From a virus (lineage: Duplodnaviria > Caudoviricetes), in the IMG/VR virus record IMGVR_UViG_3300032311_000675, positions 723 to 64,722 of that record: 64,000 nt of DNA; one strand, given 5' to 3'. The position numbers were made by a program, and so were the translations under genes. Below the pieces are notes generated by a model. The model did no database searches, had not been told where the DNA came from, and saw only the letters and a program-made list of their open reading frames with translations. Shown piece by piece: positions 45,889 through 63,631 of this stretch; the first letter of the stretch is position 1; every line of letters starts with the position of its first letter.

Positions 45889-46205
45889 AAGACATGACAG
45901 AAGACACGAAACACGTTCCATCCATTGCCGAGATGGCTAGTGCGGCCGCCGAGATAACTTGGAGAATTATGAGCAATGGGTCGGCCAAGTCGGCGTTTGG
46001 AGAATGGCTACATAAGGATAAGCCCACCTACGACTACCATATTTGTAGGGCAATCAAACACGCTGTAACTGCCCAGCAACAGATCCACCTCAACGAACCC
46101 CAGCCCGACAATAATGGCGAGACAGCCATTGACCACCTTGAGAGAACTATCGTTCGTGGTCTCTTTGCTTGGTTTCAGCTCAAGAGGAAAATGCCTAGAC
46201 TATGA
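45879..46205 (+). CDS. Hypothetical protein
   Basis: ORF in the operon. Confidence 0.6.
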   Translation: MAMKDMTEDTKHVPSIAEMASAAAEITWRIMSNGSAKSAFGEWLHKDKPTYDYHICRAIKHAVTAQQQIHLNEPQPDNNGETAIDHLERTIVRGLFAWFQLKRKMPRL

Positions 46206-47260
46206 AGGTTTATATCTGGGGCTATCTGCATCAATGCGGTGGGGCGGGACCCGAAACAGGGCACGCCATCGAGCTATTCCGAGACAACGGAGTCGAGGTC
46301 ACTTGTGTTGTTCCACAGGGAACAGATGTCCTTTCAACCCACGAGCCTAGAAGGCGGTACTTGGATTCTCTAGGGGTAGCCACGGAAGCATATAGTCCTG
46401 GTATGTTCAACGACCAGAATGTCTGGTGCTGGTGTGAGGACAGCATTTTTGAGTATCTGGCTAGGCACGAAGAGACTCCTCGGCAAGTTGTGTACTGGCC
46501 CTGTATGAATGTTCTTCGGGACAAGGAGCTAGTAGGCATAGCCAAGACAAAGAATCTAAAGATACTTTGCCAGTCGAACTACCAGCTTGGGGAGCTTGCT
46601 AAACGCCTAAACGAAGTAGGGCTTTCTGCGGATCTCCAGCACGTTTTCCCCTTCTTCAACATTGATAGTAGATGGGGAAGGTTAAGGTTTTCCAATAAGT
46701 CCCTAGATACTCTCAATGTATTAAGAATTGGCAGGGACGATGAACCCTTCAAATACCCAAGGGATATGTGGGATCTGTTCTACAAGGTGACAGCTCCTGT
46801 CGGGGTCACAACAAGACTGAATGTCATTGGATGGGGCAGGGAGGGTGAGGCTCTCTTGGGTGATGTAGGTAAAGAAGGGCATCCATATCACGGCAGAATA
46901 AACGCCGAGCTTATACCTCATATCTACAGCCCATCGACTTTGGCTAACTACTTCCGAGACGCCCACGCTTTATTGATGTGGTATCCAGTACATGAAAATG
47001 CCCCCAGAGTCCTTTTTGAGGCAATTACCAGCGGAGCTGTTGTGGTAGGAGCATCCCACGGAGGCATCCCAGAGTTCGTTAGAGACCAAGAGACTGGCTT
47101 TCTGGTCTCAAGCAATGATGAGGCCTCTCACAGGCTTTCACAGCTTGCCTTTAATCCAAACAAAACAACTCGAATGGCTGAAAATGCCTACGACAATCTC
47201 AAGAAGGGGATTGGATGCCCGAAGTGTGCCTTTGCTAGGTTTAGTGCGGAGTTCCGATGA
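46202..47260 (+). CDS. GT-B (family 4-like) glycosyltransferase
   Basis: ENAPRVLFEAITSGAVVVG..HGGIPEFV.DQETGFLV. Confidence 0.85.
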   Translation: MKVYIWGYLHQCGGAGPETGHAIELFRDNGVEVTCVVPQGTDVLSTHEPRRRYLDSLGVATEAYSPGMFNDQNVWCWCEDSIFEYLARHEETPRQVVYWPCMNVLRDKELVGIAKTKNLKILCQSNYQLGELAKRLNEVGLSADLQHVFPFFNIDSRWGRLRFSNKSLDTLNVLRIGRDDEPFKYPRDMWDLFYKVTAPVGVTTRLNVIGWGREGEALLGDVGKEGHPYHGRINAELIPHIYSPSTLANYFRDAHALLMWYPVHENAPRVLFEAITSGAVVVGASHGGIPEFVRDQETGFLVSSNDEASHRLSQLAFNPNKTTRMAENAYDNLKKGIGCPKCAFARFSAEFR

Positions 47261-48256: not shown

Positions 48257-48447
48257 CGGTAGTAGTTGTCGTCCTTTTGAGGCTCAAAACGATCGTCGTA
48301 TCCGTCTCTATCTTTATCCTTAAAATCCCACGGAGTCCGAGTACCAGGACGCTTGCTCCACAGCCAACGAGAGAAGGGAGATCTGTCTTGTTCGGGCTTT
48401 CGCTCCACCCACAACTCAATCAACCCTTTGATGAACTGGGCTATCAT
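48253..48447 (-). CDS. Hypothetical protein
   Basis: Coupled ORF. Confidence 0.5.
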   Translation of the reverse strand: MIAQFIKGLIELWVERKPEQDRSPFSRWLWSKRPGTRTPWDFKDKDRDGYDDRFEPQKDDNYYR

Positions 48448-48935
48448 TTAAGCCAATCTCGGCACACGAGCGTTCGCATCGACCTTTTCCTTCGGTATAC
48501 GCCGTCACCCCCGCCAGCTCCCCGATCCCCAGCAGAGTTAGTATTGCCCTCGATTGTGGTGGCAAAGCCATTCTCGGTTCGCTCAATCAGTCCTGTATGG
48601 GCTATACGGCCAAGGGAACTAAAGTAGATCCCAAAGACGGAAGCAGGGGGTGAGTAGGAGACTCTCTTGCCACCAGCCACCCACGACGGACTCCAGCCTG
48701 TTTTTGGTACTAGGTTGCCATACCCAGCTTCACGGAAGACATAGTAGTTAAAAGCGGCACACCAAGGATTTCCTGGTTCAAGTCCAACCGATGACAGGAT
48801 AATATCTACCTCTGGGCCTGTATTTACTCCCCATTCCTTTACTCCAATCATCTTTCTGGCTTGGACAAGGATGCATCCTCGGTCATCAGCAAAAGACAGG
48901 AAGGGGATTAGGATTAACGCCAGCCAAGAAGGCAT
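48444..48935 (-). CDS. CHAP-domain endolysin with N-terminal signal/SAR-like segment
   Basis: PWCAAF, HTGLI, TIEGNT; MPSWLALILIPFLSFA N-terminus. Confidence 0.85.
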   Translation of the reverse strand: MPSWLALILIPFLSFADDRGCILVQARKMIGVKEWGVNTGPEVDIILSSVGLEPGNPWCAAFNYYVFREAGYGNLVPKTGWSPSWVAGGKRVSYSPPASVFGIYFSSLGRIAHTGLIERTENGFATTIEGNTNSAGDRGAGGGDGVYRRKRSMRTLVCRDWLK

Positions 48936-49264
48936 ACCACGGCTCCTATGAAAAGGACGCACCATAGGCAAAGCACAATGACGAGGCGGGTCGTTCTGCT
49001 GGTGGCTCTCCAGTCCTGTAGCCAGCTCAAGGTATCGATATACTCGTTGATCGAAGGCCACTCCATTTGCACAACAAACCACGCCAGCCATACCGCTAAT
49101 AGGTAGGCAGAAGCCCCAAGGATTAAACCATGCAGGGATCCTCGGTCATACGTCCCAGCCGATGGATCAAACTGCTGGATCAGCGGGGCGGCCGACCAAA
49201 ACACAATTATGGCTATACAAAACGACCCAAGACCTTGGAACTTGGAAAGGAACTTCTTCACCAA
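48914..49264 (-). CDS. Putative holin (3 TM)
   Basis: Three hydrophobic segments next to the endolysin. Confidence 0.6.
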   Translation of the reverse strand: MVKKFLSKFQGLGSFCIAIIVFWSAAPLIQQFDPSAGTYDRGSLHGLILGASAYLLAVWLAWFVVQMEWPSINEYIDTLSWLQDWRATSRTTRLVIVLCLWCVLFIGAVVCLLGWR

Positions 49265-49653
49265 GGGATCCCTACGAACTTTCTAGCCACAAACATAATA
49301 CCACCAAATATGACCCCTCTAAACATCCATAGCCCTAAAGCGATAAGCGCACCTCGATAGATCCAAAGCTCCTTCAAGGCCTTCCGCTGTTTATCCTTCC
49401 AGACCCCAGCGTTCTTAATGGCCTCGTTCTTCTCTTTGACGGCCTCGTCCAGATCCACGGAGGTCTGCTTACAGGCCTGTACGGCACTCTCTAGCTGTGC
49501 CTTGGCTACAACTAGGTGCTTCTTGGCCTCTGGGTTGGCGACAGCGATTGCCTCGTCGATACGAGCTTCCGCTACAGAAAAGTCAGCCGACTGCCGAGGT
49601 GTTGAACACCCGCAAAGCAATACAATTAAAAATGAGATTAAGTACATGTGCAT
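49258..49653 (-). CDS. Lipoprotein with C-terminal TM, unimolecular-spanin-like topology
   Basis: Lipobox-like LLCGC, helical middle, hydrophobic C-terminus. Confidence 0.6.
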   Translation of the reverse strand: MHMYLISFLIVLLCGCSTPRQSADFSVAEARIDEAIAVANPEAKKHLVVAKAQLESAVQACKQTSVDLDEAVKEKNEAIKNAGVWKDKQRKALKELWIYRGALIALGLWMFRGVIFGGIMFVARKFVGIPW

Positions 49654-50261
49654 GGTGTTACAGGAAGATTTGCGAGATTGAGCTGTCCTTGGCCTCCCCA
49701 AGTTCCCTCTTCCTCATCAAAAGTCCTAGAAGCTCGGTCATTTCCCTCTGCGTGTCTCTCAAGTTGCCTAGATTGACCTTTCTTTGTATCGGACTGCCAT
49801 TGCCCGCCCGATTGCTGTTTATTGTCACTCTCTTGAGAAGAGTCAACGGAACCCGCCTTGCCGTTCCGCTTGTCTCCCTCTTGGGTATTTTGAGATTCTT
49901 GACTGATTTCTTTAGTGAGTTCCGCTTGACCTTCTCTTGATGTTTCGTTGTTTTGAGACAAGTTTCCGCTGGATGTGCGAGAGATTGCCCTAGCAGATTC
50001 GATAGATGCGTTTAGGCTCTTCTGGGACTCCGAAGTAACCTCGGAAGAATTATCTGAATCGCTTGAGACAACATTTCTCGTGAGGCCTTGGTGAGCCGAT
50101 GTGACCATGATCTCGAAATCTATTTTTTCTGGCAGATCGACCATCACTCCATTTAAGGGGTTTGCCTGTGTTGCATTTCGCGAGTTGGCAATCCCTCTTC
50201 TTACTTCAAACAGGGAATCACGGATAAATGTATCGAGATCGGAAAGATCAACGATTGTCAT
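49638..50261 (-). CDS. Trypco2-like N-half plus S/E/Q/N-rich tract (paralog of 50953-51543)
   Basis: LDTFIRDSLFEVRRGIANSRNATQANPLNGVMVDLPEKIDFEI. Confidence 0.7.
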   Translation of the reverse strand: MTIVDLSDLDTFIRDSLFEVRRGIANSRNATQANPLNGVMVDLPEKIDFEIMVTSAHQGLTRNVVSSDSDNSSEVTSESQKSLNASIESARAISRTSSGNLSQNNETSREGQAELTKEISQESQNTQEGDKRNGKAGSVDSSQESDNKQQSGGQWQSDTKKGQSRQLERHAEGNDRASRTFDEEEGTWGGQGQLNLANLPVTPCTCT

Positions 50262-50509
50262 CTGTTCCTCCAGTTTATCGCCGCCTCAACAGCAAACCCC
50301 ACCAGCGACCCAACTGCGGATGCGGCCAAAATAAAGAACTTCTTAAACCCCTCAAGTGCCGAAACTCTATTGGCTAGATCGCCAAAGCTTGAGAAGCTCT
50401 TCTCCATAACCTCCTTCATTTCGGTGACATCCTTTGACATGGAAATCATGCGCTCTTCCATTCTTGCCATACGCTCCGACATAAACTCACGATGTTCGGA
50501 TCGGCTCAT
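50258..50509 (-). CDS. Coiled-coil plus C-terminal TM protein (XhlA-like)
   Basis: ERMARMEER...RVSALE...TM. Confidence 0.65.
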   Translation of the reverse strand: MSRSEHREFMSERMARMEERMISMSKDVTEMKEVMEKSFSSFGDLANRVSALEGFKKFFILAASAVGSLVGFAVEAAINWRNR

Positions 50510-50943
50510 GAGACATCTCCTGGGTATTGGACAACAATCGGCACGCTGAACCGAATGACACAACCGATATCGTCCTTTTGAGTTTCAATTCTGCTAGAGA
50601 TTCCAGAGCGACTCGTGCTGGAGGACTGGGATGAGCTAGTGGACGAAGATCCACTAGAGGACTGACTCGAGCTTGAGCTTCCAGAAGTCGAGGAGCTTGA
50701 GGAACTACTTCGGCTTGTCGAAGAACTTGAGCTATTCGAGCTAGATCGGCTACTGCTACTGCTGGAGGAGGAGGAACGACTACTGCTGGAGCTGTTCGAG
50801 GAGGATCGACTAGAGCTATTACTACTGGACGAACTAGAAGATCCGCTTGACGAATTGCTCGAAGACGAAGAATTCGACGAGGATACGCTCGCAGAATTGT
50901 TGGCAACGGATGTATTCTGTGTGTCTACTAATGAGTATCCCAT
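50506..50943 (-). CDS. Poly-serine protein ending in a Trypco2-like C-terminal strand
   Basis: SD AAGGAGG; mixed Ser codons; ends GCVIRFSVPIVVQYP. Confidence 0.7.
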   Translation of the reverse strand: MGYSLVDTQNTSVANNSASVSSSNSSSSSNSSSGSSSSSSSNSSSRSSSNSSSSSRSSSSSSSSSRSSSNSSSSSTSRSSSSSSSTSGSSSSSQSSSGSSSTSSSQSSSTSRSGISSRIETQKDDIGCVIRFSVPIVVQYPGDVS

Positions 50944-50952
50944 AAAGCCTCC

Positions 50953-51543
50953 TTAAATAGAAATCCCCTCAATCTTGCCTGTGTCCGAATCGAATTTGTC
51001 GTATAGTCTCTGGGCATCGTGTCTTTGGAATGTGCATCTGTTTTCAACCTCTCCGTCGCTACTTGCCCCATTGCCCTTACTTCCTTCTGTTGAGCCAGAC
51101 TGAGATTTTCCATTTTCTTTTTCGTTGCTGGTTTCGTCTTCTAAACCTTGAGCAGACTCTTGAGAACTTTGAGATCCGCCTTCATTGCCTACACCTATGC
51201 GGGATGTCTGTTCGGAGTCTTGACCACGAGTCTGCTCTTGGGAATTTGTCGACTCCAGATCACCAGAGACCTTGCTTGAAACAGACGATTCATTGGACGT
51301 GGTGACCCTTGACTCTCTTCCACCTTCGGTGGCCGTTGCCTCAACAAGCCTTTGATAAGAAGATGACTGGTGGGTTTTGAGGAGAGTCATCTCAAAATCA
51401 ATCTTTTCGGGGAGATCCACCATTACCCCTGTGTTTGGATTGGCCTGTGAAGCATTTCGAGACAACGCAATCCCTCTCCGCACCTTGAAAAGGATGTTCT
51501 CGATGACGCTGGCAGAAGAGGCGAGTGGTACGACAAGGGCCAT
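50953..51543 (-). CDS. Trypco2-like N-half plus S/E/Q/G-rich tract
   Basis: IENILFKVRRGIALSRNASQANPNTGVMVDLPEKIDFEM. Confidence 0.7.
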   Translation of the reverse strand: MALVVPLASSASVIENILFKVRRGIALSRNASQANPNTGVMVDLPEKIDFEMTLLKTHQSSSYQRLVEATATEGGRESRVTTSNESSVSSKVSGDLESTNSQEQTRGQDSEQTSRIGVGNEGGSQSSQESAQGLEDETSNEKENGKSQSGSTEGSKGNGASSDGEVENRCTFQRHDAQRLYDKFDSDTGKIEGISI

Positions 51544-51544
51544 A

Positions 51545-52414
51545 CTAGAACCCCACAGGAGTCATCATCTTGTTCATCGCACCGCTGATAGGCTCGTGGT
51601 ACGACTTCAAGAAGGCCAAGGACTCCGATGCCTTCTTTACGACAAGGTTTTTGTCTAGGTCTGGTTTGAGCAGGGAAGTTGTCGCCAGCTCCCCAACGAT
51701 AAGGGGAACTAAGAAGGCCTCAATATCAGAGCTGGGGGTGTAGATCCCAATAGGAATCTGTAGATCCGAGAGAACCAACTGCTGTGGCTCTAGCGAAGCC
51801 GAGAAGCGGATTGAGGAAGCCTTTGTAGGCAAGGGGATGACCCGAACTAAAGCCCTAGCCCCACCGCCAATAGTGTCTCCGAGGTATTCTGCCGTGTAGT
51901 AAGCGGGAAGCCCGCTCTGCCTATAATAAGTAAGGGTGTCTTGGCGTACTGGAGCTTCTGAAAGAAAGGTTAGGCGATGGTCTTCGTCCCAGATTACAGA
52001 CCCTTCGATGCGACGGATTGGTGCCCACAATGGGATCGCATCGTCATAAAGAAGGCCAGTATAGGTTCCAGAAGCCAAAGACCACGGATCACGAAGGGTA
52101 GATCCAATAGCAAGAGGACACTTGCGATCACCGACCTCAAGTGTATCCCCGATCCGTTCGGTATCAGAGGACAGGGTGAGGCCTGTCACATTCCTAGATC
52201 CTTGGGTCAGTCCAACCGACACGCTTACAGGGGCAAGCTGGAACGAGGTGACAGGAGTTGTCTTACGCCCAGAAGGGGCTGAAAAGTAGTATTTTGCAAA
52301 CCCAGCATTGATCGCACCAATTAGTGTAGAGGCTTGGTCTACTGGGATTGAAATTGGATCGTTCGGTAGGTTTGTGAACGAGATTACCCTTTGGGCGAGC
52401 TGTAATGATGTCAT
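51545..52414 (-). CDS. Putative head-tail adaptor / collar protein
   Basis: Position in the structural operon; GLPAYY...RVIPLP pattern shared with the upstream adaptor. Confidence 0.6.
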   Translation of the reverse strand: MTSLQLAQRVISFTNLPNDPISIPVDQASTLIGAINAGFAKYYFSAPSGRKTTPVTSFQLAPVSVSVGLTQGSRNVTGLTLSSDTERIGDTLEVGDRKCPLAIGSTLRDPWSLASGTYTGLLYDDAIPLWAPIRRIEGSVIWDEDHRLTFLSEAPVRQDTLTYYRQSGLPAYYTAEYLGDTIGGGARALVRVIPLPTKASSIRFSASLEPQQLVLSDLQIPIGIYTPSSDIEAFLVPLIVGELATTSLLKPDLDKNLVVKKASESLAFLKSYHEPISGAMNKMMTPVGF

Positions 52415-53088
52415 TTGGCCTCCTCCAGGGTTTTCAACGCCCTGTCATATTCGGCCTTTAACAAAGGCTCTCTCTGTTTGCTTTTATCGGCAAAAAACAA
52501 CGAACTGCTGGATAGGTAGCGGGCGATGGGCAACAGCAGGGTCTCTGCGTAGTTGTGAGGCATCGGGATAATTGTGGAGGCCGAATAATCGCTAGTTGTA
52601 AAGGCAGGGGCTTTAATCGAAACCTCCACGGACAGAGCTGTGCTTGTGGTGGGAGAAGGCACAACAAACATCGTGATCTGGGTGGAATCGGCGGCGTCTG
52701 GGGAAGGCCGTTTCTCGTCTGCAAAGTAGGCTTGGGGTGGCGCACCAGTAAGGGCAGTCAGACTGCCAGCATAAATGGAGGCAAATGAATCGTACTCGCC
52801 TCTTGTGCGGATCGGGCGAAGGCCTACGCCATCAGAAACACGTTTTACAGGGCCGAGAACCGCTTCAACCGAGTCATCGAGCGTGACGTTATTTGAGTTG
52901 GCTGAAATCGTCGCAGTAATCGTCTGGCGTGTGTAGTAATCCAAGAGCCGATGCCCCTTGGCCCAAATGAGTTGTAACGCCGAATTAAGGTCGTTGAATA
53001 TCCGCCTCCGCATGATTTCGGGGGCAGATGCGTTATTAGGGATGCCGAATACTTCATAAATTGCATCTATGGCTTGGGTGACGTTCAT
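52411..53088 (-). CDS. Putative head-tail adaptor
   Basis: LNSALQ...PQAYF...VVPSP...IPMPHNY..LL; follows the capsid gene. Confidence 0.7.
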   Translation of the reverse strand: MNVTQAIDAIYEVFGIPNNASAPEIMRRRIFNDLNSALQLIWAKGHRLLDYYTRQTITATISANSNNVTLDDSVEAVLGPVKRVSDGVGLRPIRTRGEYDSFASIYAGSLTALTGAPPQAYFADEKRPSPDAADSTQITMFVVPSPTTSTALSVEVSIKAPAFTTSDYSASTIIPMPHNYAETLLLPIARYLSSSSLFFADKSKQREPLLKAEYDRALKTLEEAK

Positions 53089-53375
53089 ACAGCCACCGCC
53101 TTGCGAGGCCTCCTAGGCTTTTCCAAAGGGGCAGGGGTTTCATCAATAACAGGCTCATCTTTAAGAATCTTAACTGATGGCCTATAGAAAGCATCTTTCG
53201 TAGCGAAAATATCATCCACCGATGAGGAATCCTCTTGGCTAATAACGCCTCGATTCCAGACATGGGTATTAAATTCGTTGTTCCAGATAAAAGTGTAGTA
53301 CCTACCAGAACCACCAGAGAGTCTGATGGCTGGGTTGTAGCGTGAAGAACCAGTAATTGTGATGACGAGATTCAT
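53085..53375 (-). CDS. Hypothetical protein
   Basis: Coupled ORF after the capsid terminator. Confidence 0.6.
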   Translation of the reverse strand: MNLVITITGSSRYNPAIRLSGGSGRYYTFIWNNEFNTHVWNRGVISQEDSSSVDDIFATKDAFYRPSVKILKDEPVIDETPAPLEKPRRPRKAVAV

Positions 53376-53427: not shown

Positions 53428-54990
53428 TTAGACGTTGTCTACGGGCAACACCAAGCCTGCGTAACGAACAGCGTGGTTCAGTACGAGGTAGTTGGGTTGT
53501 TCGCCGTCAACACGGACATAGGGGCTTTGGCCGAATATGCTCGTGATGTAGGTCTTGCGAATGAACTCGCCATCGAACGTCTCTTCGGAACGCTCGCCGT
53601 CCAAGGATCCGTAGCCACGAACTGCGGCCATAGCTCCCAGAACCATCGTGCGACCAATCGGTACGCCCTGTGCGTTACACTCGATCACCAAATCACCGAC
53701 GGCGTGATCGTTAGTGATCTTGCTGTCAGCAAATGCGTTGGCGTTGAGGGTGACGCTTTCGGAGGCATCCCATCCAGTCGAGGCCGTGGCCTTTTTGACT
53801 GCAAGGGTGTTGCTTCCACCAATAGTATCGGTTGATTTAACCAATGCTTTGGTGATGTTCAGCGTGTTTCCGTTGTTGGTGGTGTATTTGTACAAGCCAT
53901 ACTTACCGCTCGACAGGATCAGAACGTATCCAGCCGTGTAGCTCGTCCCGCTGGCTGTGCCAGTAGGATTCGAGAAGTTGATTGCGGTTTCGGTCTGGTC
54001 GGAACCAGTCGGATAGCTGTACCCGCTGAAGAACTTGAAGTACTTCGGAGCGGTTTTGGCGGCGGCAGTAGCAGATCCACCACCCTTGAGGGTGAGGGCA
54101 GTCTTGCTGGCGGCCAAGATATCAGCAGAAGAGCTGACAGCGACGCCCAAGCTGGCTTTGGCGTTGATCGGAGATCCGATCGCACCGAAACCATCGTGGT
54201 CGGCAGGGTCAAACTGACGGATGACGTGACCATCGAGATCAACGTATCCACCAGTGAACTGCTTCGCACCTTCACCTTCAGCGGCGGCGGCGGCGTTCAA
54301 GGCGGCCAGATATTTCGATTCGCTCTTGAGGGAAAGCAAGCCTTCGCCTGTGGAAACGATAACGAACTTCTGGATCTTGTTCTTGCCAACCTGCCCGATG
54401 GTCGCAGGGCGAGCCCCACGAGTGCGGAGTTGCTGACCAGCGGCGATCAAGCCGTCGTAGGAGAGTGTATCGGTGTGCGTCAGCGCATCAATCGAGCCAC
54501 GTCCGTTAGCCTGGTAGTAGTTTTTCGCAGTACCTTTGTGGAGGAACAGCTTCTGGAGGCGTTCGGTTTTCATCCGTCCGAGCCAGTTGCCGAGCATCAC
54601 AGGCACATTGCTCTTCAATTCGCTGGCGAGAGCAGTTTTCTCCTCGAGCCGACGATTGTAAGAGACAGCGTGACGCAAGAAATCCACAGTCAGATTATAA
54701 GATCCGACTCGGAAGTCTTCCGTGTTGTCCTGGATGAGTGTTTCACCCTGCACGCCTTCGCCGTAGAGTTGAGCCATCGTGCGGAACGTGATTTTCGTCC
54801 CTGCACCTTTGCTCAAGTCCCGAACGGACATGACTGGGTAGCTTTCTGTGGGTCCCTCGAACTGCTGAAAGAAATTCTCAGCGGCCTCCGAGAGTTGAAC
54901 CCCTTTCTTCCAAAGTTCGGGAAGAAAATTGGAAGCTTGCGACGAGATATCGCTCGTCGCGTTGTTTGTAGGAATTAAAAGGTTAGCCAT
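53428..54990 (-). CDS. Major capsid protein (N4-gp56/DUF4043 type)
   Basis: DLSKGAGTKITF...GEGVQGE...RHAV; strong SD AGGAGG. Confidence 0.9.
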   Translation of the reverse strand: MANLLIPTNNATSDISSQASNFLPELWKKGVQLSEAAENFFQQFEGPTESYPVMSVRDLSKGAGTKITFRTMAQLYGEGVQGETLIQDNTEDFRVGSYNLTVDFLRHAVSYNRRLEEKTALASELKSNVPVMLGNWLGRMKTERLQKLFLHKGTAKNYYQANGRGSIDALTHTDTLSYDGLIAAGQQLRTRGARPATIGQVGKNKIQKFVIVSTGEGLLSLKSESKYLAALNAAAAAEGEGAKQFTGGYVDLDGHVIRQFDPADHDGFGAIGSPINAKASLGVAVSSSADILAASKTALTLKGGGSATAAAKTAPKYFKFFSGYSYPTGSDQTETAINFSNPTGTASGTSYTAGYVLILSSGKYGLYKYTTNNGNTLNITKALVKSTDTIGGSNTLAVKKATASTGWDASESVTLNANAFADSKITNDHAVGDLVIECNAQGVPIGRTMVLGAMAAVRGYGSLDGERSEETFDGEFIRKTYITSIFGQSPYVRVDGEQPNYLVLNHAVRYAGLVLPVDNV

Positions 54991-56059: not shown

Positions 56060-56107
56060 AGTGATAGGCGAGGTTGCTCGATGGGATCGAGGGAGGATTA
56101 GTTGAGC

Positions 56108-56653
56108 ATGAGCAATATGAAATCCCTTGGCCCGCTAGGGGTTAGTCCAGCGTCTGGGTATGGGTATGTTTCTGGGTCGAATGCCGCAAGGTTTTTTGGT
56201 GAGGGGACTATCACCCCCAAGTTCTTTGCTTGGCACGCATTTTTCCAGATCCGACCAGGAAAGTTTACTGGTAGCGTTATGTCAAAATATTATGTCGGCC
56301 CTAAAGGCTCATTTATTTACGGATCTACAGTTGAAGTTCAAGGCCTTGACGAAGCGCTAACTCCAGCAGGGACAAAGACTTATGTATATATTGAGTGCGG
56401 TGTAACAGATGCGGCGATAACTACCGCTGAAATCAAGGGGTACTCAACTCAAAAGCCCTTGTTTGAGCCAGAGGCCGAACTTGCGGAGCAGACGAAGGTA
56501 CGTCACTTCCTTGGCGTTGTTGTAAAGCAGAGGCCGTTTCCAAAATTTGGGCATAATTTAACCTACCCAGTAATTCAAAGCTCATTTTCTGTCCCAATCG
56601 CCGTCCCTGCGTGTATCAATGGATATCGTGGGGTTCTGATTACAACTTCATGA
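56108..56653 (+). CDS. Putative tail-associated protein
   Basis: First gene of the oppositely oriented late cassette. Confidence 0.6.
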   Translation: MSNMKSLGPLGVSPASGYGYVSGSNAARFFGEGTITPKFFAWHAFFQIRPGKFTGSVMSKYYVGPKGSFIYGSTVEVQGLDEALTPAGTKTYVYIECGVTDAAITTAEIKGYSTQKPLFEPEAELAEQTKVRHFLGVVVKQRPFPKFGHNLTYPVIQSSFSVPIAVPACINGYRGVLITTS

Positions 56654-59214
56654 AGGGCAGACGCACTTCCTTCCAGCGTTTTGGGAGTATGGTCGGAGTT
56701 CAAGGGTCATCTCTTAACAAGTGGCCGAGGGGTTATGAAGTCCGTAGGGACATGGACACACCCATATCCAGCTCTCCTCCAACAGATCAGTCTGATGGCA
56801 AAGGCATTTATAACCTAACGCTAAAAAATAACGACAAGCTTGAATACACGCCGTCAGAGGCCGACATGGGTGAAGAGGTGTATGGATGTATCACATCTGG
56901 ATACACGAAAAACCAGAAAGCTCCTCAAATCGAGTACAATACAGATATCGCTATAGCTAACAGGCGAGAGAGAGAAGATTACGAAGCCGAGAAATATCAC
57001 TTCTCTAGCTCTGGGCGCATTTGGGCAGTTGGAGAGAACCGAGAGGTTGGAAGTGTAGATAGTTCCTGTATCCCTACAGAAAATGTCCCGCTAGTAGCTA
57101 ATTCCAAGTTCAAGATGAAGTTTTGGGATGAAGCAACAAGCAAAATGATAGAAATCCCGAAGGGTGCTGGATTCACTTCTGGAAGTTTGGTTAGGCCGAT
57201 CGCTTTCAGCGATAAGGCTGACAAAATACCGAATGGTGCTGGAGTGGGTGATATGCGTGCCCACACGATTGAGGGCGTACCAATCAAGATTGCTCATGCA
57301 ATCCTAAATCGTTGCAAGGAGGTCTCCCTAACTGGTTCTGTTGATTACACCATAGAAAGAAACAGCAAGGAGTGTGAGGGTCCAACAACAAGCACTTATA
57401 GTTGGACTTCCGAGAGTGGCCCTAATGGATGTCCACCAGGAACGTGCGAGGACACAAGTGGAAGCATCACGCTTACGTGTGTCTCTGAGAAGCAAACTAC
57501 AAAGGTTGGCCTTACTGGCTCGATTGACATGACTGCCTATAGGTACAAGCAACTATCTGATGTTTGGGAAGACCCAACGTCGCTAGATTTATCCCTAAAT
57601 TACTTTTATGGAAGCGTGGAAGATGGTGCTTCGTTAAGGAAAGTCTCACTTTCGAGTTGCGAGCCAGAAACAGACAGCGTCCAAACGCCAATTCCTCCAC
57701 CGACGCTTGAATATATCACTGATTACGACAAGCAGACAAAGTTAAGCTCTGGATGTCTGGTCTACCCGCACTCTAACAACACCATCCTTTGCGCCACGCT
57801 AGAGGACAACCTAAAGACAACTGACTTTACTGCGGATAACTGCATTCCAAGTACGGCAAAGACAACTTACGACCTAATCACAACGCCATACTCATTTTAT
57901 GTCTACGCAAATTATTTTTATGACATAGATAATTTTTTCCCAGACGGAGTTCCTCGTGGCCTCCCGCAGATATGCCCACAGCTTATTGCTGGCCCAAGCC
58001 TTGAAGCTTTTTTTCAAGGTGATGGCTGGGATTTTAGCGGGATTGGAATTGAGGGGCCAGAGCCTTGGTATACTGATAACGACTGCGGAGATAAGGCTCA
58101 AAACTATAAGAACTACAAAATGGATTGGAAAGGTACTGGCCTCAAGAAGGTCATTCTATCTGGAGCGTGCGGAAATGGCTTTGCTGGTATGGGTAAATAT
58201 GACAGGGAGGGTTCTAGCGGTTGCAAATGCGACTCGGGTTGCGAGGCGTGTACAAACAAATACGGAGACTTAAAGTTCAGCTGTGAATGCCAGCCCCTGT
58301 GCAATGATCCAGATTATAGCGGTGGTTTTGATGAAAACCCATGCAATGGCGAGCGCAAGGACAAGTGTGATGGTAATTTCAGGGCTAGGATTGCAATCGG
58401 AAAATATGTCGGAGTCGAAAATTACCCAGAGTACAAACTTTACAATGTTGCGCCAGTTCCGCTTTCAACAAAGGCAACAACAAAGACAGAAGATCTGACT
58501 CTGTGGTGGTTTGCTGCTTTTACGGATATACTTGAGTACGCTTGGTATCTCGAAACTGGATTGCTATCCGTTCCAGTTTTTCTTAACGCTGAAAGCATTA
58601 AGATGCCCTCTGACAATTCTCTAACAAGATATGAGAAAAAAACTGTAGGGAATCTGACAGTCAAATGTGATGACTGGTCAACCACAATACCGCTGTTGGG
58701 CATTTTTGCTATATCCAAAGAGACGGAGTGCATAGGCTCTAGCAACTCTGACGGGTACAACGTAATCGTTGGATCCGAAGCGGGCACACCACGGCAATAT
58801 TGTGTTGGGTGTGACGGGGCGGATTTACAGAGATGCTGTTCGCCAAGCGGATGTAGCGGATCAGAGGGGCAGGGTGATTGTTGCGTGTCAACTTATTGCG
58901 GGATTGATGACCCATGCGGTTATGCTTACAGGTCATCAAAGTATGGGCATGAGTGCGACCAAAACAAAAATGCTGGGGATTGCTCTGGTTCGTGTGAATC
59001 CTCGAATGGAGAGGACTGCGGGTGTTGTGGGTGTAGTTTTGAAGCAGACAACTACTGCGAATCAATATGTCCGCCGATGACAACTTGCAAACCTTACGTT
59101 GTAACCCAGCCATTCAAAGCATTGGGTTGCTACGGCGACGCCCACGAAGAAGACAAACACGAAGCATCAGTAAACCTCACGCTTGAATTCAAACTTTTCA
59201 CAGAAATGGAGTAA
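56650..59214 (+). CDS. Cysteine-rich putative tail/receptor-binding protein
   Basis: About 45 Cys by hand count, clustered (CKCDSGCEAC, CGCCGC); ATGA coupling at 56650. Confidence 0.7.
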   Translation: MKGRRTSFQRFGSMVGVQGSSLNKWPRGYEVRRDMDTPISSSPPTDQSDGKGIYNLTLKNNDKLEYTPSEADMGEEVYGCITSGYTKNQKAPQIEYNTDIAIANRREREDYEAEKYHFSSSGRIWAVGENREVGSVDSSCIPTENVPLVANSKFKMKFWDEATSKMIEIPKGAGFTSGSLVRPIAFSDKADKIPNGAGVGDMRAHTIEGVPIKIAHAILNRCKEVSLTGSVDYTIERNSKECEGPTTSTYSWTSESGPNGCPPGTCEDTSGSITLTCVSEKQTTKVGLTGSIDMTAYRYKQLSDVWEDPTSLDLSLNYFYGSVEDGASLRKVSLSSCEPETDSVQTPIPPPTLEYITDYDKQTKLSSGCLVYPHSNNTILCATLEDNLKTTDFTADNCIPSTAKTTYDLITTPYSFYVYANYFYDIDNFFPDGVPRGLPQICPQLIAGPSLEAFFQGDGWDFSGIGIEGPEPWYTDNDCGDKAQNYKNYKMDWKGTGLKKVILSGACGNGFAGMGKYDREGSSGCKCDSGCEACTNKYGDLKFSCECQPLCNDPDYSGGFDENPCNGERKDKCDGNFRARIAIGKYVGVENYPEYKLYNVAPVPLSTKATTKTEDLTLWWFAAFTDILEYAWYLETGLLSVPVFLNAESIKMPSDNSLTRYEKKTVGNLTVKCDDWSTTIPLLGIFAISKETECIGSSNSDGYNVIVGSEAGTPRQYCVGCDGADLQRCCSPSGCSGSEGQGDCCVSTYCGIDDPCGYAYRSSKYGHECDQNKNAGDCSGSCESSNGEDCGCCGCSFEADNYCESICPPMTTCKPYVVTQPFKALGCYGDAHEEDKHEASVNLTLEFKLFTEME

Positions 59215-59215
59215 T

Positions 59216-59827
59216 ATGAACAAATCAGAACTGGTATGGAACGAAACTGGAATTGTTATGACCCAAGGCCTTATGTGCCTAGAGGTTGACAGGCGAGTTT
59301 TTAAGCTAGATCCAAACTCCCCAGACCAACTGATGCTTGAGCTTGGCCGTACAAAGACCCTCCAGTACGAAAGTTCTAGTAGAACCGCCTATCTCTTTGA
59401 GGCTCCGATGAAGGAAGACGTGCCTCACTTAAGGCCTTTTGTGAAAAGGGGGATGATCGGTAGGTGCTATGAATCAAATGCTTTAACCCATCAGACCATC
59501 ACAAGCGATTGGGTTTGCTCTGTGGATGGCGATATTCTCCCATCTCCTCGGCCTGTCCTTGAGTTGTTTTATAAGGCTCCGTCTCTTGTCCAACAGGCCA
59601 TGTCGTTTGGATCTGCCATAAAAAAGGCTACTTCCGATGGGACTTTAGCGACTAAAGTAAGGCCAGAGACGTTCGCCTTCCGTAAGGAAATCTGTTTTGG
59701 GTGCGAGTACTACGATCCCTCAGCCTTCTTGGGTACTGGAAGGTGCAGGGTGTGTGGGTGTGGGGTTGGAAAACTGCACATGCCGTCCCAGAGCTGTCCT
59801 AAAGGTAAATGGGGTAAAGAAGAATGA
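59216..59827 (+). CDS. Protein with C-terminal Cys cluster (DUF6171-like)
   Basis: RKEICFGC...RCRVCGC...CPKGKW. Confidence 0.7.
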   Translation: MNKSELVWNETGIVMTQGLMCLEVDRRVFKLDPNSPDQLMLELGRTKTLQYESSSRTAYLFEAPMKEDVPHLRPFVKRGMIGRCYESNALTHQTITSDWVCSVDGDILPSPRPVLELFYKAPSLVQQAMSFGSAIKKATSDGTLATKVRPETFAFRKEICFGCEYYDPSAFLGTGRCRVCGCGVGKLHMPSQSCPKGKWGKEE

Positions 59828-61200
59828 TCGTTGTGATGCAGATCTGGGACGGAGACAAGGACGACTCCGTAATGACGGCAAAGGCTGTCAAAGAGGAGTA
59901 CCCCGACTGCCAGCTTGGGATCCTAGCTAATAACTGCGTCCATCCAGAAGAGCTGGAGGGCTATGCTGACTTAATCCATACGACAACCGAGGATGTCTAC
60001 CATGATCGAGCAGGGGGTTTAGCTATCCACGAGCTACTCGTTTTAGGTCTTCGCTTGTCTGGGAAGGTGATCGTTAAGATAGATCCAAACACGGACATAT
60101 CTTTTCAAGAAGGCCTCGAGGAGGAGCTAATCAGGAGCGGGGTGTTCGGTCAGCTTAATATGATCGAAAGAGACCAGTTGCTCGTTTCAGCCAGTATATT
60201 TGCAGTCTCCAGAATCACAGCACGAGAGCTTGTGGATTCCTGTATTCTTCTTGATACGGCCATTCAGAATCCTTCAAAAGGCAACCAAGCAATGCTTCGT
60301 AGGTACTTTAACCCAAAGAAGGGGTTGTCCTCGCACGACTGGCCGATTGCCTATGCCTCATCTGCTTTGGGCATCCCGCACCACTATTCTGGTAAGCTAT
60401 TGAAGGCCTTTCATCACAACCCAAGAGAGCGGGTATCGACAATGATGTTCAAGAAGACTTCCGAGGAGACTTCTAGCGGAATCGTGATTCCTCCAAGTGC
60501 CACAGATTTGCGTTCCGAGATCCTTGCCGAGTCCCCAGAACATATTGGGCTTAACAAGGCCATTGAGTTTCTATCAATGATTTGGGGTAGCGAAGGGGTT
60601 TCCATATCCATGAAGCGTGACCCCGATGCTCGGATGTATATTGGAGATAAGATGGATTCTGATGGGGTTCTTCATCATTCCGCACCCACATTCAACGACA
60701 TAGCAGAAGCCAAGAAGGTGCTTAAAGAAGGTGTGTTTTCTTTCAAGGTAATGAATGCCAAACCAGACAACGGAGCAGGGGTTTCGATGCTTGTCTTGGA
60801 CATTGACCGCCCAGTCCCAGAAGACTGCCAAGCCTCGGTCATCTCAACCTCTCATACCCACTCCCAGATCTTCATGCTGATGGATCAAAACATCACGCAG
60901 GAACAAGCCCTAGAGCTTATCAAAGAAGCCGACTTCGCCGACAAGAGCGGAAGTAAGGCCACAACCTTGCTGGTGGGAGTCCGAGTACCAGGATCTGCGT
61001 CTTACGAGGAGGTTTGCCTACACAATACAACTGAAGACAGATGCACCGCCCATAAGGTTTTGGCTGACGAAAAGGTTCGGCTGGTCAAGCTCGTGGATAA
61101 ATTCTTTACTTACGACGAGGCTCTGGCCGTGATTCGTGGCCTTGCAGAATCCTATAAAGTGCGGCCTCCTGTGACGGAACCAGAGCCAGTACTTCCTTAA
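59824..61200 (+). CDS. Two-domain protein: GT-A-like N-terminus, AEP/RepB-primase-like C-terminus
   Basis: IVKIDPNT...HDW; LVLDID...ISTSHTHSQIF...D...VRVPGS. Confidence 0.5.
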   Translation: MIVVMQIWDGDKDDSVMTAKAVKEEYPDCQLGILANNCVHPEELEGYADLIHTTTEDVYHDRAGGLAIHELLVLGLRLSGKVIVKIDPNTDISFQEGLEEELIRSGVFGQLNMIERDQLLVSASIFAVSRITARELVDSCILLDTAIQNPSKGNQAMLRRYFNPKKGLSSHDWPIAYASSALGIPHHYSGKLLKAFHHNPRERVSTMMFKKTSEETSSGIVIPPSATDLRSEILAESPEHIGLNKAIEFLSMIWGSEGVSISMKRDPDARMYIGDKMDSDGVLHHSAPTFNDIAEAKKVLKEGVFSFKVMNAKPDNGAGVSMLVLDIDRPVPEDCQASVISTSHTHSQIFMLMDQNITQEQALELIKEADFADKSGSKATTLLVGVRVPGSASYEEVCLHNTTEDRCTAHKVLADEKVRLVKLVDKFFTYDEALAVIRGLAESYKVRPPVTEPEPVLP

Positions 61201-61375
61201 CTGCCATATAGGCCGAGTGCCTGTTTTGACGTTCTTCTGGGGTAATTCCCGCCTCTAAAACTGCCTCTTTAAGGCCTTCCAGATGCCTTGAAAGGGTCGG
61301 TAGGTACCACTCGTTGTACCCAGAATTGTCTTTTAACCGCTCTATGAGTGCCAGTTGGCTGGCTGGATCGCTCAT
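61106..61375 (-). CDS. Small portal-adjacent protein (Bbp19-like position)
   Basis: ATGA coupling to the portal; overlaps the convergent gene by 95 nt. Confidence 0.6.
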   Translation of the reverse strand: MSDPASQLALIERLKDNSGYNEWYLPTLSRHLEGLKEAVLEAGITPEERQNRHSAYMAVKEVLALVPSQEAALYRILQGHESRPEPRRK

Positions 61376-63597
61376 GCGGGTGTGGGATTACCGCCAGCTA
61401 GGCCAGCATCAACAGGGACACTTTTCGTTCCACCAACGCTAGGAGCGGGTGAGCTAGGGGATCCAGCTTGGCCGAATACTCGTCCGTCTGGAGTGATTCC
61501 ATTCTGGGTGGGAGGCGGGGCAAAGGGCTGAATGATCGACTCTGCATCCACAATCCCGAGGGCTTTGAGGCTCTGGTTGTAGAACAGGGCGACCTTCTGC
61601 TGAACTTCTGGGGGCAATCCATAGAACTGGGTGACAAGACCCGCCGCTTGAGCGTTGCTCTGGAGCTGTTGCTCTCCGTGGTAGCGGGTCAGAAGGAGTC
61701 GGATATTGATGTTAATATCGGCAATTTCTTCTGGGGTGATTGTCACAAGCTGGACTGCATCGCCTTCCAAGTAGTTGAACATTTCTTTTTTGTTCATGTT
61801 GTCCAACAGGATCAAGACCAGCCGATTGACCACTTGGGACAGGGCTGGCTCCAAGGACATCAAGTACTGCGAGAACATTTCGTTGCCAGCTTGGTCGATG
61901 CTTCGGATGCCAGTAGCCAGCTTGCTCGATGGCAATCCAGAGAACTCTTGGTCGCCACCAGTCATCACGCCCGACTCAAGTTGAACGAGCTGGGTGAAGT
62001 ATTGAAGCATGAAATTGAGATCCTTTTCCTTGGACTCTGGGAGAGCCACATAGGTCAAAGCATCGGCGGCCGCAAAACCTGGGCGGAGGGTATAAGTGCC
62101 TCCCGAATTGAGAATGAGATTTGGATTTGCAGACCCTTCAAAGGTCGCATCTGGACGCCAGAATGTGACTCGCCCGCTTGAGCTTTGGCTGAAATTGAGG
62201 CGGTTAATGGTCAGATCCATGAAGTCTTGCGAGGTCTTGAACTGCTCCACTCCACCCATTCCGTACCAGCGTCCGTCCACAGGGTTCACTCGGACTACTG
62301 TGAAAGGTCTACGGCCATCGGAGGTCACATTTGCCACATACTCGTAGAAGATTGCCCGCTGATTGCGAACATCCAGCAGAAGCATGATTTCTTCGGTGAT
62401 TCCGTCTCCGTTTGCATCGTACCGCAGATAGCATTCTGCAATTTCCATCGTCGGGTTGTTGAAGGTATTGTTTGGCTCGTAAGCCTCGCCACGCTCCGTT
62501 CTGGCCTGTTTAGCACCAGTCTTGGGGATCCCAGACTCGGTTGCAGACAGGCGGATCTGGTCAATCGCCGCTTGGATTCGGAGCATCTCCTCTTCGGGTG
62601 TCTCTTCGCTTTTCGACCCTTTCTTGTTGTAGAGGTCGGCCAGCTCCATAACAGGAGCGTCATAAAGGTGAGCCACAAAGTCGGCATCATCCACAGAGGT
62701 TGCATTGAGTGGGCAAATAAAGTCTTGGTAGTAGACAGGCTCGGCAGTTGGGCCTTCTGAAATGATTGCCCTTCGGCTGATCGTTTGCTCGATGAACACA
62801 GGAACAGGGGGCTGGATCGTGGCCATATCCCGCCTCAAAAGCATAATAGGTTCGCCGATCTCGTTCTGGGCTGGGACAAAGCTGTCCTTATCGGTAATGA
62901 AATCTCCGTCCGTTGCGAGGATTGGCTGGCCGTTTAGATCCACCAGAACCTTGGCATTCCGCTGATAGACTTGCTCTTTTTTAACGTGGGTCGTCTTGAC
63001 CACGCATTCGCCACGGACAAAGGCCAGTTGCAAGGCCATCGCCATGGCATCTTTCACCCCAAGCCTGTTGAACTTGTAGCGAGCATATCGCTCAACCTTG
63101 TCTGCGATGTCCCGATCGGCCGCTCCTTCGGGCAGGGCAGAGAACCAAGGATCTGTGCCAAGGAAGTATTTCTGTGCCTTTGCGATCATTTGCCGAACGA
63201 TACGGCGGGTGACAGGCACGATAAGATTACTCTGCTCGAAGATCCCTCCCATTACCGCTGGACGCCAAGAAACATTGTTTTCGTAGATCCACTCAAAGAT
63301 CTGACGACGACCAAGGAATGTCTCGAAGGCCATCAACGAGGTCGGGTTGGTGTTGTAAGCAGTATTACGGACGATACTTCGCCCCATCTCTACCTCGAGC
63401 TTGCGGAGGCGTTCCCATGCGTGCCGAACCAGCTCCTTTTCTTGCTCTTCGGTCAACTTATAGGCTGTTGGGAAGGCAACCGCAGTAGGGGTTCCGCCAC
63501 CCAAAGCCCGAGCGTTTGGCCCACTTCGGGCAGAATCAAGAGCCTTCTCCAGTTCTTCGGCCTTCTTTACGAGGTTATCTACTTGATTCTCAGCCAT
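61372..63597 (-). CDS. Portal protein
   Basis: P22/T7-like features: RGECVVK, EIAECY, RPF..V...P...WYGMG..E, ATGI; ATG 63597. Confidence 0.9.
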   Translation of the reverse strand: MAENQVDNLVKKAEELEKALDSARSGPNARALGGGTPTAVAFPTAYKLTEEQEKELVRHAWERLRKLEVEMGRSIVRNTAYNTNPTSLMAFETFLGRRQIFEWIYENNVSWRPAVMGGIFEQSNLIVPVTRRIVRQMIAKAQKYFLGTDPWFSALPEGAADRDIADKVERYARYKFNRLGVKDAMAMALQLAFVRGECVVKTTHVKKEQVYQRNAKVLVDLNGQPILATDGDFITDKDSFVPAQNEIGEPIMLLRRDMATIQPPVPVFIEQTISRRAIISEGPTAEPVYYQDFICPLNATSVDDADFVAHLYDAPVMELADLYNKKGSKSEETPEEEMLRIQAAIDQIRLSATESGIPKTGAKQARTERGEAYEPNNTFNNPTMEIAECYLRYDANGDGITEEIMLLLDVRNQRAIFYEYVANVTSDGRRPFTVVRVNPVDGRWYGMGGVEQFKTSQDFMDLTINRLNFSQSSSGRVTFWRPDATFEGSANPNLILNSGGTYTLRPGFAAADALTYVALPESKEKDLNFMLQYFTQLVQLESGVMTGGDQEFSGLPSSKLATGIRSIDQAGNEMFSQYLMSLEPALSQVVNRLVLILLDNMNKKEMFNYLEGDAVQLVTITPEEIADININIRLLLTRYHGEQQLQSNAQAAGLVTQFYGLPPEVQQKVALFYNQSLKALGIVDAESIIQPFAPPPTQNGITPDGRVFGQAGSPSSPAPSVGGTKSVPVDAGLAGGNPTPA

Positions 63598-63631
63598 ATT
63601 CGATTTCAACCATCAATGGCGAGGCGTGCGA

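Follow-up and report, generated by a model that had tools for sequence, protein, structure and literature searches.

Length-matched polar tracts encoded by three neighbouring genes of an uncultured phage: candidate partner chains of an elongated neck or tail structure

Why should two or three neighbouring phage genes encode low-complexity tracts, of a kind usually dismissed as disordered, whose lengths stay equal to within a few residues while shifting by up to 80 residues among relatives? The locus that raises this question lies in a 64,000-nucleotide stretch of DNA (the window), bases 723–64722 of the 64,722-base virus record IMGVR_UViG_3300032311_000675, which has direct terminal repeats, is rated 100% complete, and comes from an uncultured phage. 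A reading of the window from its letters alone (the sequence-only reading) had singled out three genes, here called A, B, and C, as a split Trypco2-like domain in which separate chains would provide the outgoing and returning strands of a long polar beta-hairpin, possibly part of a DNA conduit. We find that the tract lengths of the three genes move in lock-step, a clear evolutionary signature of in-register pairing, and we consider the odds evenly balanced that their products are partners within a single elongated part of the virion neck or tail.

All three open reading frames (ORFs) lie on the minus strand where the sequence-only reading had placed them: A (50953–51543, 196 aa; also covered by a 34-sequence alignment), B (50506–50943, 145 aa), and C (49638–50261, 207 aa). 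A and C are paralogues, as that reading had claimed, sharing an N-terminal domain (N-domain) that spans residues 1–58 in each (51370–51543 in A, 50088–50261 in C), with 34 of 56 residues identical (61%, BLASTP E = 4e-22) and nothing significant beyond (E = 15). In A, the N-domain is followed by an acidic polar tract of ~108 residues (residues 59–166, 51046–51369) and a conserved C-terminal motif, ..RCTFQRH..YDKFDSDTG.. (residues 167–196); in C, it is followed by an acidic polar tract of ~119 residues (residues 59–177, 49731–50087) and the motif ..EGNDRASRTFDEEEGTWGGQGQ..PCTCT (residues 178–207), with the two proteins ending in related motifs (..YDKFDSDTG.. in A, ..TFDEEEGTWG.. in C). B consists of a conserved N-terminus (MGYSLVDT.., residues 1–20), a basic (S-x)n tract (residues 21–118, 50590–50883), and a conserved C-terminus, ..ETQKDDIGCVIRFSVPIVVQYPGDVS (residues 119–145, 50509–50589), that terminates in ...DDIGCVIRFSVPIVVQYPGDVS; 82 of its 145 residues (57%) are serine, in keeping with the earlier description of a mostly serine stretch. 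One phase of the B tract is 98% serine in the window and 0.91–0.98 serine in most B tracts of the clade that carries all three genes (the trio clade), and 15 B orthologues share 39 invariant or nearly invariant serine columns, every one at an odd position.

Despite this composition, B is a real gene, with its own GGAGG Shine-Dalgarno site, all six serine codons in use, and evidence of purifying selection: synonymous versus non-synonymous codon differences number 36/7 between the window and relative L003 and 95/14 between relatives L020 and L021. The same two comparisons give 29/36 and 96/84 for A and 21/27 and 93/89 for C; the sequence of B is held, and A and C preserve length more than sequence. 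The DNA of B is not a simple tandem repeat, with Tandem Repeats Finder reporting only a 30-nt repeat in 2.1 copies, and this, together with the selection on B and the 22 IMG/VR loci described below, places the trio pattern far beyond chance. None of the three proteins matched a PHROG family, nor any Pfam family at E ≤ 1 except for a chance-level CCD97 match (E = 0.59). Two other origins for the matched tracts were considered and rejected. For a fusion of A and B through stop-codon read-through, the two genes are in frame in the window, where the starts are 600 nt apart, but the start spacing is out of frame in L012 (773 nt), L014 (725 nt), L019 (800 nt), and L023 (341 nt). A nucleic-acid cause, such as complementary or tandem DNA, fares no better: the sole direct repeat between the genes is a 105-nt stretch coding for the N-domain (71% identity), and the inverted repeats reach at most 19 nt.

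Relatives of the trio are numerous among uncultured phages. A word-based search with the A N-domain yielded 70 proteins from 73 candidates, all of A or C type, 185–297 aa long and free of Pfam domains, and 22 IMG/VR loci carry the order A-B-(X)-C, in which X is a small gene considered below. An exhaustive profile search built on 27 N-domains returned 68 proteins at E ≤ 1e-3, the 22 weakest real matches of which (P0107–P0129 minus P0112) are 98–166 aa long and consist of the N-domain followed by a polar T/S/E/Q/G tail with an aromatic end. The protein set aside, P0112 (349 aa), carries about seven repeats of ..LLEIREGIANS.., and the N-domain helix matches it seven times (E = 9e-6), probably as an artefact of composition or repeats, although its helix motif is oddly similar. 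Nine more loci hold distant forms (L023 and L024 from IMG/VR, L025–L031 from JGI metagenomes), each with an A-like gene immediately followed by a B-like gene and no C gene, so that C is confined to the trio clade. The distant B-like proteins have a short N-terminus before the polar tract and, after it, a closing motif (..IAFTITFSVPLEGRFPLPI, ..VACRITFSVPILGRVP.., ..LACVCKFSVAIRGGL, or ..GGVVSFSIPIRGG..). In 31 of 31 loci, tblastn with the window proteins found homologues of the major capsid protein, the adaptor, and a 289-aa adaptor-like protein together with A/B. The order in L031 is altered (major capsid protein, p97, A, B, adaptor, p294) with the pair kept together, indicating that A/B stays with the adaptor genes despite rearrangement, and in L026–L029 and L030–L031 the pair is followed by a tail-fibre-like gene or by adaptor genes, not by lysis genes.

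No cultured relative was found among 50,697 deposited phage genomes, either by blastn of window positions 49200–53100 or by tblastn of the major capsid protein, and the 283-aa and 286-aa proteins of the distant clades likewise gave no tblastn match there. Searching one genome per bacterial species with the N-domain profile gave 33 pattern matches, none of which was confirmed, and in the ESM Atlas, searched by features or structure, all matches fell under the bar, with a model predicted local distance difference test (pLDDT) score of 0.37. A word-based search of 5.8 billion predicted proteins with B residues 104–145 produced one candidate and none that scored, a result in which uncalled genes and a blind search are indistinguishable. 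Because the A and B tracts are repetitive, they also contain long spurious ORFs in their other frames and antisense to the genes; these reach 523 aa in L024 (4374–5945, minus strand) and 139 aa at window positions 50487–50906. Gene callers could choose them over the real genes, and a poly-serine partner such as B may be easy to overlook.

To ask how tract lengths behave, we assembled 30 rows, comprising the 22 trio loci, the window, and seven A+B loci (L025 and L028, which repeat L023 and L027, were excluded); these represent 26 distinct sequence sets, including 15 complete trios, out of 23 trio-clade rows, in 11 distinct length classes. Over these 11 classes, A ranges from 196 to 271 aa, B from 145 to 225 aa, and C from 207 to 286 aa, and the differences stay within 46–51 (A minus B), 10–15 (C minus A), and 59–63 (C minus B). 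Length correlations are correspondingly tight (r = 0.998 for A/B, 0.999 for A/C, and 0.999 for B/C, with slopes of 0.98–1.03), the standard deviation of the differences being 1.3–1.9 aa versus 28–29 aa for the lengths themselves. A twelfth class, L017, with lengths of 257/210/270 (A/B/C), was added after its 257-aa A had first been missed by the search pattern. The neighbouring 289-aa protein is fixed at 288–289 aa in trio-clade loci while A, B, and C vary, and on a tree of this protein seven of nine sister pairs differ in A/B length, with changes in A and B of 54/54, 55/57, 51/54, −26/−30, −6/−6, −58/−58, and 8/8 and, where C is present, changes in C of 54, −28, and −6. Independent contrasts give a correlation of 1.00 over 23 contrasts; as short branches dominate these, we place the weight on the sister pairs.

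The clades with A and B only follow the same length rule. A and B measure 230/189, 238/197, and 222/181 aa in L026, L027, and L029, a difference of 41 each time, and 195/166 and 141/112 aa in L030 and L031, a difference of 29 in both, with L030 holding three additional 18-residue repeats in A and three in B. In L023 and L024 the lengths are 114/80 and 169/137 aa (differences of 34 and 32). Co-variation of tract lengths, the check that had been set beforehand, thus gave a strongly positive result for the trio clade as well as for three distant A+B clades.

Several features of the tracts point to contact between them along their length. Partner tracts often have the same dominant repeat period (10/10/10 in L008 and L012, 18/18 in L024 and L030, 8/8 in L026, 9/9 in L031), with other combinations in L014 (6/12/12), L007 (6/12/10), and L027 (8/4). 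Their charges are complementary: B tracts carry a mean net charge of +8.0 (n = 25, range −2 to +14), acidic residues being almost absent from those of the trio clade, and A and C tracts average −11.9 (n = 24) and −12.4 (n = 16), the window values being −10 for A, +6 for B (no acidic residue), and −4 for C. Alternating compositions of the (G-x)n, (T-x)n, or (N-x)n kind also occur in A or C of other phages (GKGNGQ, DTSTGT, NENR), and identity at lag 2 exceeds that of shuffled sequences (z > 3) for A in 7 of 24 tracts, for B in 11 of 25, and for C in 4 of 16; together with the (S-x)n of B, these compositions point to beta strands.

The position of insertions and deletions (indels) speaks to the direction of the chains. 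Taking residue 58 of A and C and a point 27 residues from the C-terminus of B as anchors, a single 6-aa indel between the closely related L019 and L020 (A residues 124–129, B 123–128, C 124–129) lies 68 residues from the proximal anchor in A, B, and C alike when B is counted from its C-terminal anchor, and 111, 105, and 123 residues from the opposite ends, its placement being uncertain by ~5–6 residues because the sequence is repeated. The distances agree only if B is antiparallel, which favours an arrangement with B running against A and C. Between L007 and L014, a 36-aa indel lies at a proximal distance of 46 in B and 38 in C. From the lock-step lengths and these signs we infer that the tracts very probably pair directly and in register; the earlier proposal of a split topology, with A and C as outgoing and B as returning strands, fits the domain layout, the charge complementarity, the repeat periods, and the two co-localised indels, and we lean towards such an antiparallel split hairpin with appreciably less assurance.

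Structure prediction adds a little to this picture. We modelled A 1–80, C 1–80, and B 95–145 together, with alignments made for each chain, and obtained a median interface score (ipSAE, interaction prediction score from aligned errors) of 0.34 (runs 0.31, 0.34, and 0.43) versus 0.03 for the best of three controls, with at least 23% of contacts in agreement among runs. Of 80 solved complexes, 58 reach the mark applied to such predictions, as do 2 of 110 mismatched pairs; with scores of 0.60 or under, only 7 of the 80 do so, together with both of the passing mismatches. We therefore treat this prediction, which is graded as weak support, as a mild plus for pairing. Modelled alone with AlphaFold2 (AF2), A shows a helix at residues 7–31 (pLDDT 58–73), a tract with pLDDT below 50 (residues 70–169), and a small C-terminal hairpin.

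The genes around the trio suggest where such a structure might sit. They form a minus-strand run of abutting genes leading from the capsid through the adaptors, A, B, X, and C to the lysis genes. The major capsid protein (53428–54990; PF13252, E = 7e-11; phrog_334, E = 1.9e-19) is followed by a hairpin terminator with a 13-bp stem (53415–53386), an ORF for a 96-aa protein (53085–53375), a 225-aa adaptor (52411–53088; PF24175 SU10_adaptor, E = 3e-7, 31.5 bits against a cut-off of 27), and the 289-aa protein (51545–52414). The AF2 model of the latter (mean pLDDT 75) has a large beta insertion between helices, and Foldseek matches it best to neck or adaptor chains of DEV (E = 9.6e-4), GP4, P1, Carin-1, N4, Pa223, and SU10, which marks it as a second adaptor-like (head-to-tail) protein. 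The two adaptor-like genes stand in tandem and their products have a common C-terminal helix motif (..LLLPIARY.. and ..LVPLIVGEL..). With one product (225 aa) matching SU10_adaptor and the other (289 aa) resembling podophage head-to-tail adaptors in fold, the trio can be placed after two adaptor-like genes, in agreement with the sequence-only reading. Starts and stops abut or overlap across the adaptor-like and A/B genes, the A start codon lying 1 nt past the stop of the 289-aa gene and the B ORF beginning 9 nt past the A stop.

Further along, the start of X (50258–50509) overlaps the B stop and its stop overlaps the C start. X encodes 83 aa that read as a coiled coil with a C-terminal membrane helix, has weak family matches only (phrog_35984, E = 0.0014; DUF1515, E = 0.042), and was detected by tblastn in 14 of 31 loci, all in a close subclade; it probably does not belong to the conserved A/B module. 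Beyond C lie a gene for a spanin-like lipoprotein with a C-terminal membrane helix (49258–49653, minus strand; phrog_456 Rz-like spanin, E = 0.0038), a 116-aa protein that reads as a membrane protein (48914–49264, minus strand), and a CHAP-type endolysin (48444–49091, minus strand; phrog_9589 endolysin, E = 1.4e-13; CHAP, E = 5.5e-4, below the Pfam cut-off). The spanin-like gene, whose start falls within the end of C, has a lipobox-like N-terminal signal (..LLCGCST..) as well as its C-terminal helix, the layout of a unimolecular spanin, and shares its operon with the CHAP-type endolysin and X, an XhlA-like small protein.

Elsewhere in the window, the portal lies at 61372–63609 on the minus strand (SU10_portal, E = 9e-26), and between it and the minus-strand scaffold and capsid genes is a plus-strand block of four genes (56102–61200; 183, 867, 214, and 458 aa), whose products are candidates for tail parts; the 867-aa and 458-aa proteins, the only two scanned, had no family and no PDB sequence match. 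The 289-aa profile and three large ORFs of no assigned function likewise matched no PDB sequence. A single minus-strand ORF of at least 5,283 aa (2–15850), about one-quarter of the genome, runs off the start of the window and contains a ddrB-like ParB domain (E = 1.9e-6) and a Strawberry-notch/SNF2-type helicase (Helicase_C_4, E = 3.3e-25; AAA_34; ResIII); we take it to resemble giant virion-borne anti-restriction proteins such as P1 DarB.

Set in this context, the proposed assembly would amount to a polar beta-hairpin of great length, severed at the tip so that its strands are separate polypeptides. The acidic A and C tracts and the basic B tract would lie side by side as extended strands in register, with B antiparallel. 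The ..RFSVPIVV.. strands at the C-terminus of B would complete the helix-plus-strand N-domain of A (or C) proximally, and the conserved C-termini of A and C would meet the conserved N-terminus of B at the distal end. Each residue of a chain would require a counterpart in the other chains, so a tract could gain residues only if its partners gained as many at the same rung, and the lengths would move in lock-step as a result. The module would be made together with the two adaptor-like proteins, and a ring of such ribbons would, most plausibly, form a closed tube beneath the adaptors, a polar beta-barrel on the tail axis, with 12 A.B pairs giving 24 strands in two-gene phages; as speculation, duplication of A into C may have led to six A.B and six C.B pairs in the window phage. 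Beta strands rise 0.25–0.33 nm per residue. Tube length, if set by tracts of ~48 to ~185 residues, would then be ~12–60 nm, with predicted spans of 27–36 nm for the window phage, 12–16 nm for the shortest relative, and ~45–60 nm for the longest. We regard the tubular geometry, or a role as a DNA conduit, as tentative, and the fullest version of the idea as doubtful: a gene-programmable tail tube in which a 24-stranded, fully polar barrel of 12 tip-cut hairpins (A.B; here six A.B and six C.B), ~12 to ~50 nm long as set by the matched tracts, is retuned by concerted gain or loss of repeats in two or three genes, its fold perhaps being that of an ancient Pepco relative too diverged for sequence detection.

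A number of observations weigh against an elongated neck or tail element of this kind, beginning with the fact that all of the evidence is computational. The low pLDDT of the A tract fits intrinsic disorder as well as folding that depends on assembly, and in the complex prediction, which the sequence-only reading had put forward as a check, the score stood clear of its controls while the partner chains had a pLDDT of only 47–50 and no interface was returned. The tract charges fail to cancel, summing to −8 in the window; for this reason, and given exact length matching where both tracts are nearly neutral, charge neutralisation was rejected as the cause of the matching. The window A and C tracts have no period-2 identity signal (z = 0.1 and −1.7), and across phages only the minority of A and C tracts counted above exceed z = 3. 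Indel positions are unmatched in L008/L012 (proximal distances 79/136/175) and L027/L026 (53 versus 153), gap placement in both being arbitrary because of repeats. The window trio adjoins lysis genes, with the membrane-protein gene X interleaved. Finally, the absence of a recognisable nozzle or tube gene, noted earlier, holds as non-recognition only, since five large ORFs have no assignment and could be the real nozzle, tube, or fibres.

Much of the pairing evidence would serve equally well for a fibre on the neck or tail with no channel, in which A.B ribbons, with or without C, form thin polar fibres or whiskers docked on a beta-rich domain of an adaptor-like protein and act as spacers or weak adhesins. 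The large beta insertion of the 289-aa protein could be such a dock, and in SU10 (PMC9509320) the fibre genes gp12 and gp13 come after the adaptor gene gp11 and the fibres dock on the adaptor. In the A+B-only clades, however, the distal end amounts to a short aromatic clasp and lacks a receptor-binding domain (A ends ..NSYTYGQADGVMGN or ..SAYGYNK), and an isolated two-stranded polar ribbon would lack a stabilising core, leaving a fibre rather unlikely.

A channel of a different kind would arise if A, B, and C were stored unfolded in the head or channel, passed through the tail at infection, and then formed a polar barrel across the host envelope, much as ejection proteins of T7, P22, or SU10 do. 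That A modelled alone is mostly disordered would suit passage through a narrow channel, the predicted 12–60 nm would be on the scale of the envelope, and podophage ejection-protein genes commonly lie after the tail genes. SU10 ejection proteins lengthen the nozzle across the periplasm (PMC9509320). Pfam and PHROG scans showed no similarity to known ejection proteins, however, and the close coupling with adaptor genes fits a pre-assembled part equally well; we think this scenario unlikely.

It is more improbable still that the tracts never pair and are independent, flexible, disordered stalks whose lengths co-vary from spanning the same distance, with B perhaps O-glycosylated on its serine face. 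Tracts of the (S-x)n kind are a typical feature of glycosylated stalks, serine-rich repeat and SD-repeat proteins among them, AF2 shows no order in the tract, and the phage encodes a GT4-family glycosyltransferase (46202–47260, plus strand; PF00534, E = 3.8e-11) that is present in 14 trio-clade loci and in the complete record holding L022; this enzyme is a possible modifier of the serine-rich B. Yet entropic spacers would need neither a tolerance of ~2 residues over a 75-residue range nor equal repeat periods and indels at the same rung, and exact matching is also seen with nearly uncharged tracts, as in L027 (NENR versus TGTS). In addition, the glycosyltransferase was not found in the two A+B-only records searched (44% and 63% complete), and B, which starts MGYSLVDTQN.. 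and ends ..VVQYPGDVS, has on inspection no hydrophobic leader or other signal peptide and no LPXTG motif or wall anchor.

Whether the genes belong with Trypco2, as their original label implied, can be answered more directly. Trypco2 domains are described in PMC7159879 beside a trypsin-like or caspase peptidase in an NTPase conflict system, and a recent preprint (bioRxiv 10.1101/2025.11.14.688446) reports that Pepco, the new name for Trypco1/2, forms SDS-resistant 9–10-mer beta-barrels with basal amphipathic helices. The Trypco2 model PF19631 (cut-off 24.2 bits) matched none of full-length A, B, and C at E ≤ 1, nor, at E ≤ 10, any of 18 sequences comprising six N-domains, two B C-termini, and ten distant relatives, and a six-frame search of the whole 64.7-kb genome gave no candidates; the same model was positive in 64 of 101 genomes of one actinobacterial family. 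Profile–profile comparison (hhalign) of 51 N-domains with real Trypco2 domains, 41 of them, taken from cyanobacterial and actinobacterial genomes, gave a score of 15.3 (P = 0.019, probability 2.5%), aligning query positions 17–52 with template positions 7–46, the helix and first strand that the sequence-only reading had pointed to, versus 15.0 for the reversed template and a mean of 10.0 (standard deviation 2.5) for column-shuffled templates, 1 of 60 of which reached 15.3. The B C-terminus scored 11.2 (P = 0.11) and aligned with positions 23–38 and not with the C-terminal strand. No unsplit chain of ~80–120 aa running from helix through hairpin to closing strand was found, none of the 68 deep-search matches ending in an FSVP-type strand, and every locus with both A and B encodes them separately. 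Trypsin_2 (PF13365), the sole peptidase model tried, had no matches in the complete genome, and the neighbours of the trio are capsid, adaptor, and lysis genes. As the hidden Markov model, profile–profile, and peptidase searches were all negative, membership in Trypco2/Pepco was rejected as unsupported and the label is dropped.

The resemblance in plan is still of interest, because Pepco forms beta-barrels. In both, the order of elements is an amphipathic helix at the N-terminus, then an outgoing strand, a polar hairpin, and finally a closing strand bearing a ..h.h.h.P motif; A residues 7–31 do model as a helix. Pepco, in contrast, is a single chain of ~117 aa with a hydrophobic barrel exterior and a peptidase partner, and acts as a membrane toxin. 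A true split homologue acting on membranes, as a pore-forming barrel tied to lysis or host killing and not part of the virion, could draw on this motif-level resemblance in the expected register, on the barrel-forming habit of Pepco, and on the adjacent lysis genes of the window, but it is very improbable given the lack of statistical support for homology, tracts that are polar on both faces, the missing Trypsin_2 peptidase, and the distant loci in which no lysis genes follow A/B.

If A, B, and C do form an elongated neck or tail element, and in particular a tube, the nearest parallels would be the lower collars of Gram-positive podophages. In P68, Andhra, and phi29, 12-fold tail proteins form tubes of 24 antiparallel beta-strands (PMC13730344). 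The tube favoured here would likewise be a polar 24-strand barrel built of hairpins from 12 subunits below the connector, and A/B lie beside adaptor and 289-aa homologues in all 31 loci. There, however, the hairpin belongs to one chain within a larger folded protein, whereas here the two strands would be separate gene products, ~48–185 residues long, of low complexity, and very variable in length among close relatives. Pfam and PHROG scans of A, B, and C also showed no sequence similarity to these collar proteins.

Outside phages, heterotrimeric collagen and the type I/II keratin rods offer examples of separate gene products whose repetitive tracts are kept equal in length by in-register pairing. 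The length-matched tracts described here resemble them in this respect, but those rods are a triple helix or a coiled coil of parallel chains, and the compositions seen here point to beta strands, with one chain apparently antiparallel. The serine-rich repeat and SD-repeat surface glycoproteins of Gram-positive bacteria have dipeptide repeats of the (S-x)n type, recalling the strict (S-x)n repeat of B and the GT4-family gene in the phage genome; unlike them, B is a 145-aa protein with no signal peptide or wall anchor, encoded in a phage morphogenesis operon and locked in length to two other proteins. No description of a module of length-matched polar or poly-serine tracts in phage tails was found in the literature listings searched.

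The last comparison is with the tape-measure protein, one long helical chain inside a tube made of many copies of another protein. In both systems protein length would set the length of a tail part, but in the phages studied here the length-setting chains would themselves be the wall, so that two or three genes must change together. Should tube or fibre length prove to be set in this way, it would represent a new means of sizing a phage tail part without a tape measure and could naturally serve as the model for protein nanotubes or ribbons built to a chosen length. The trio already draws attention to the tail architecture of a whole family of uncultured phages.

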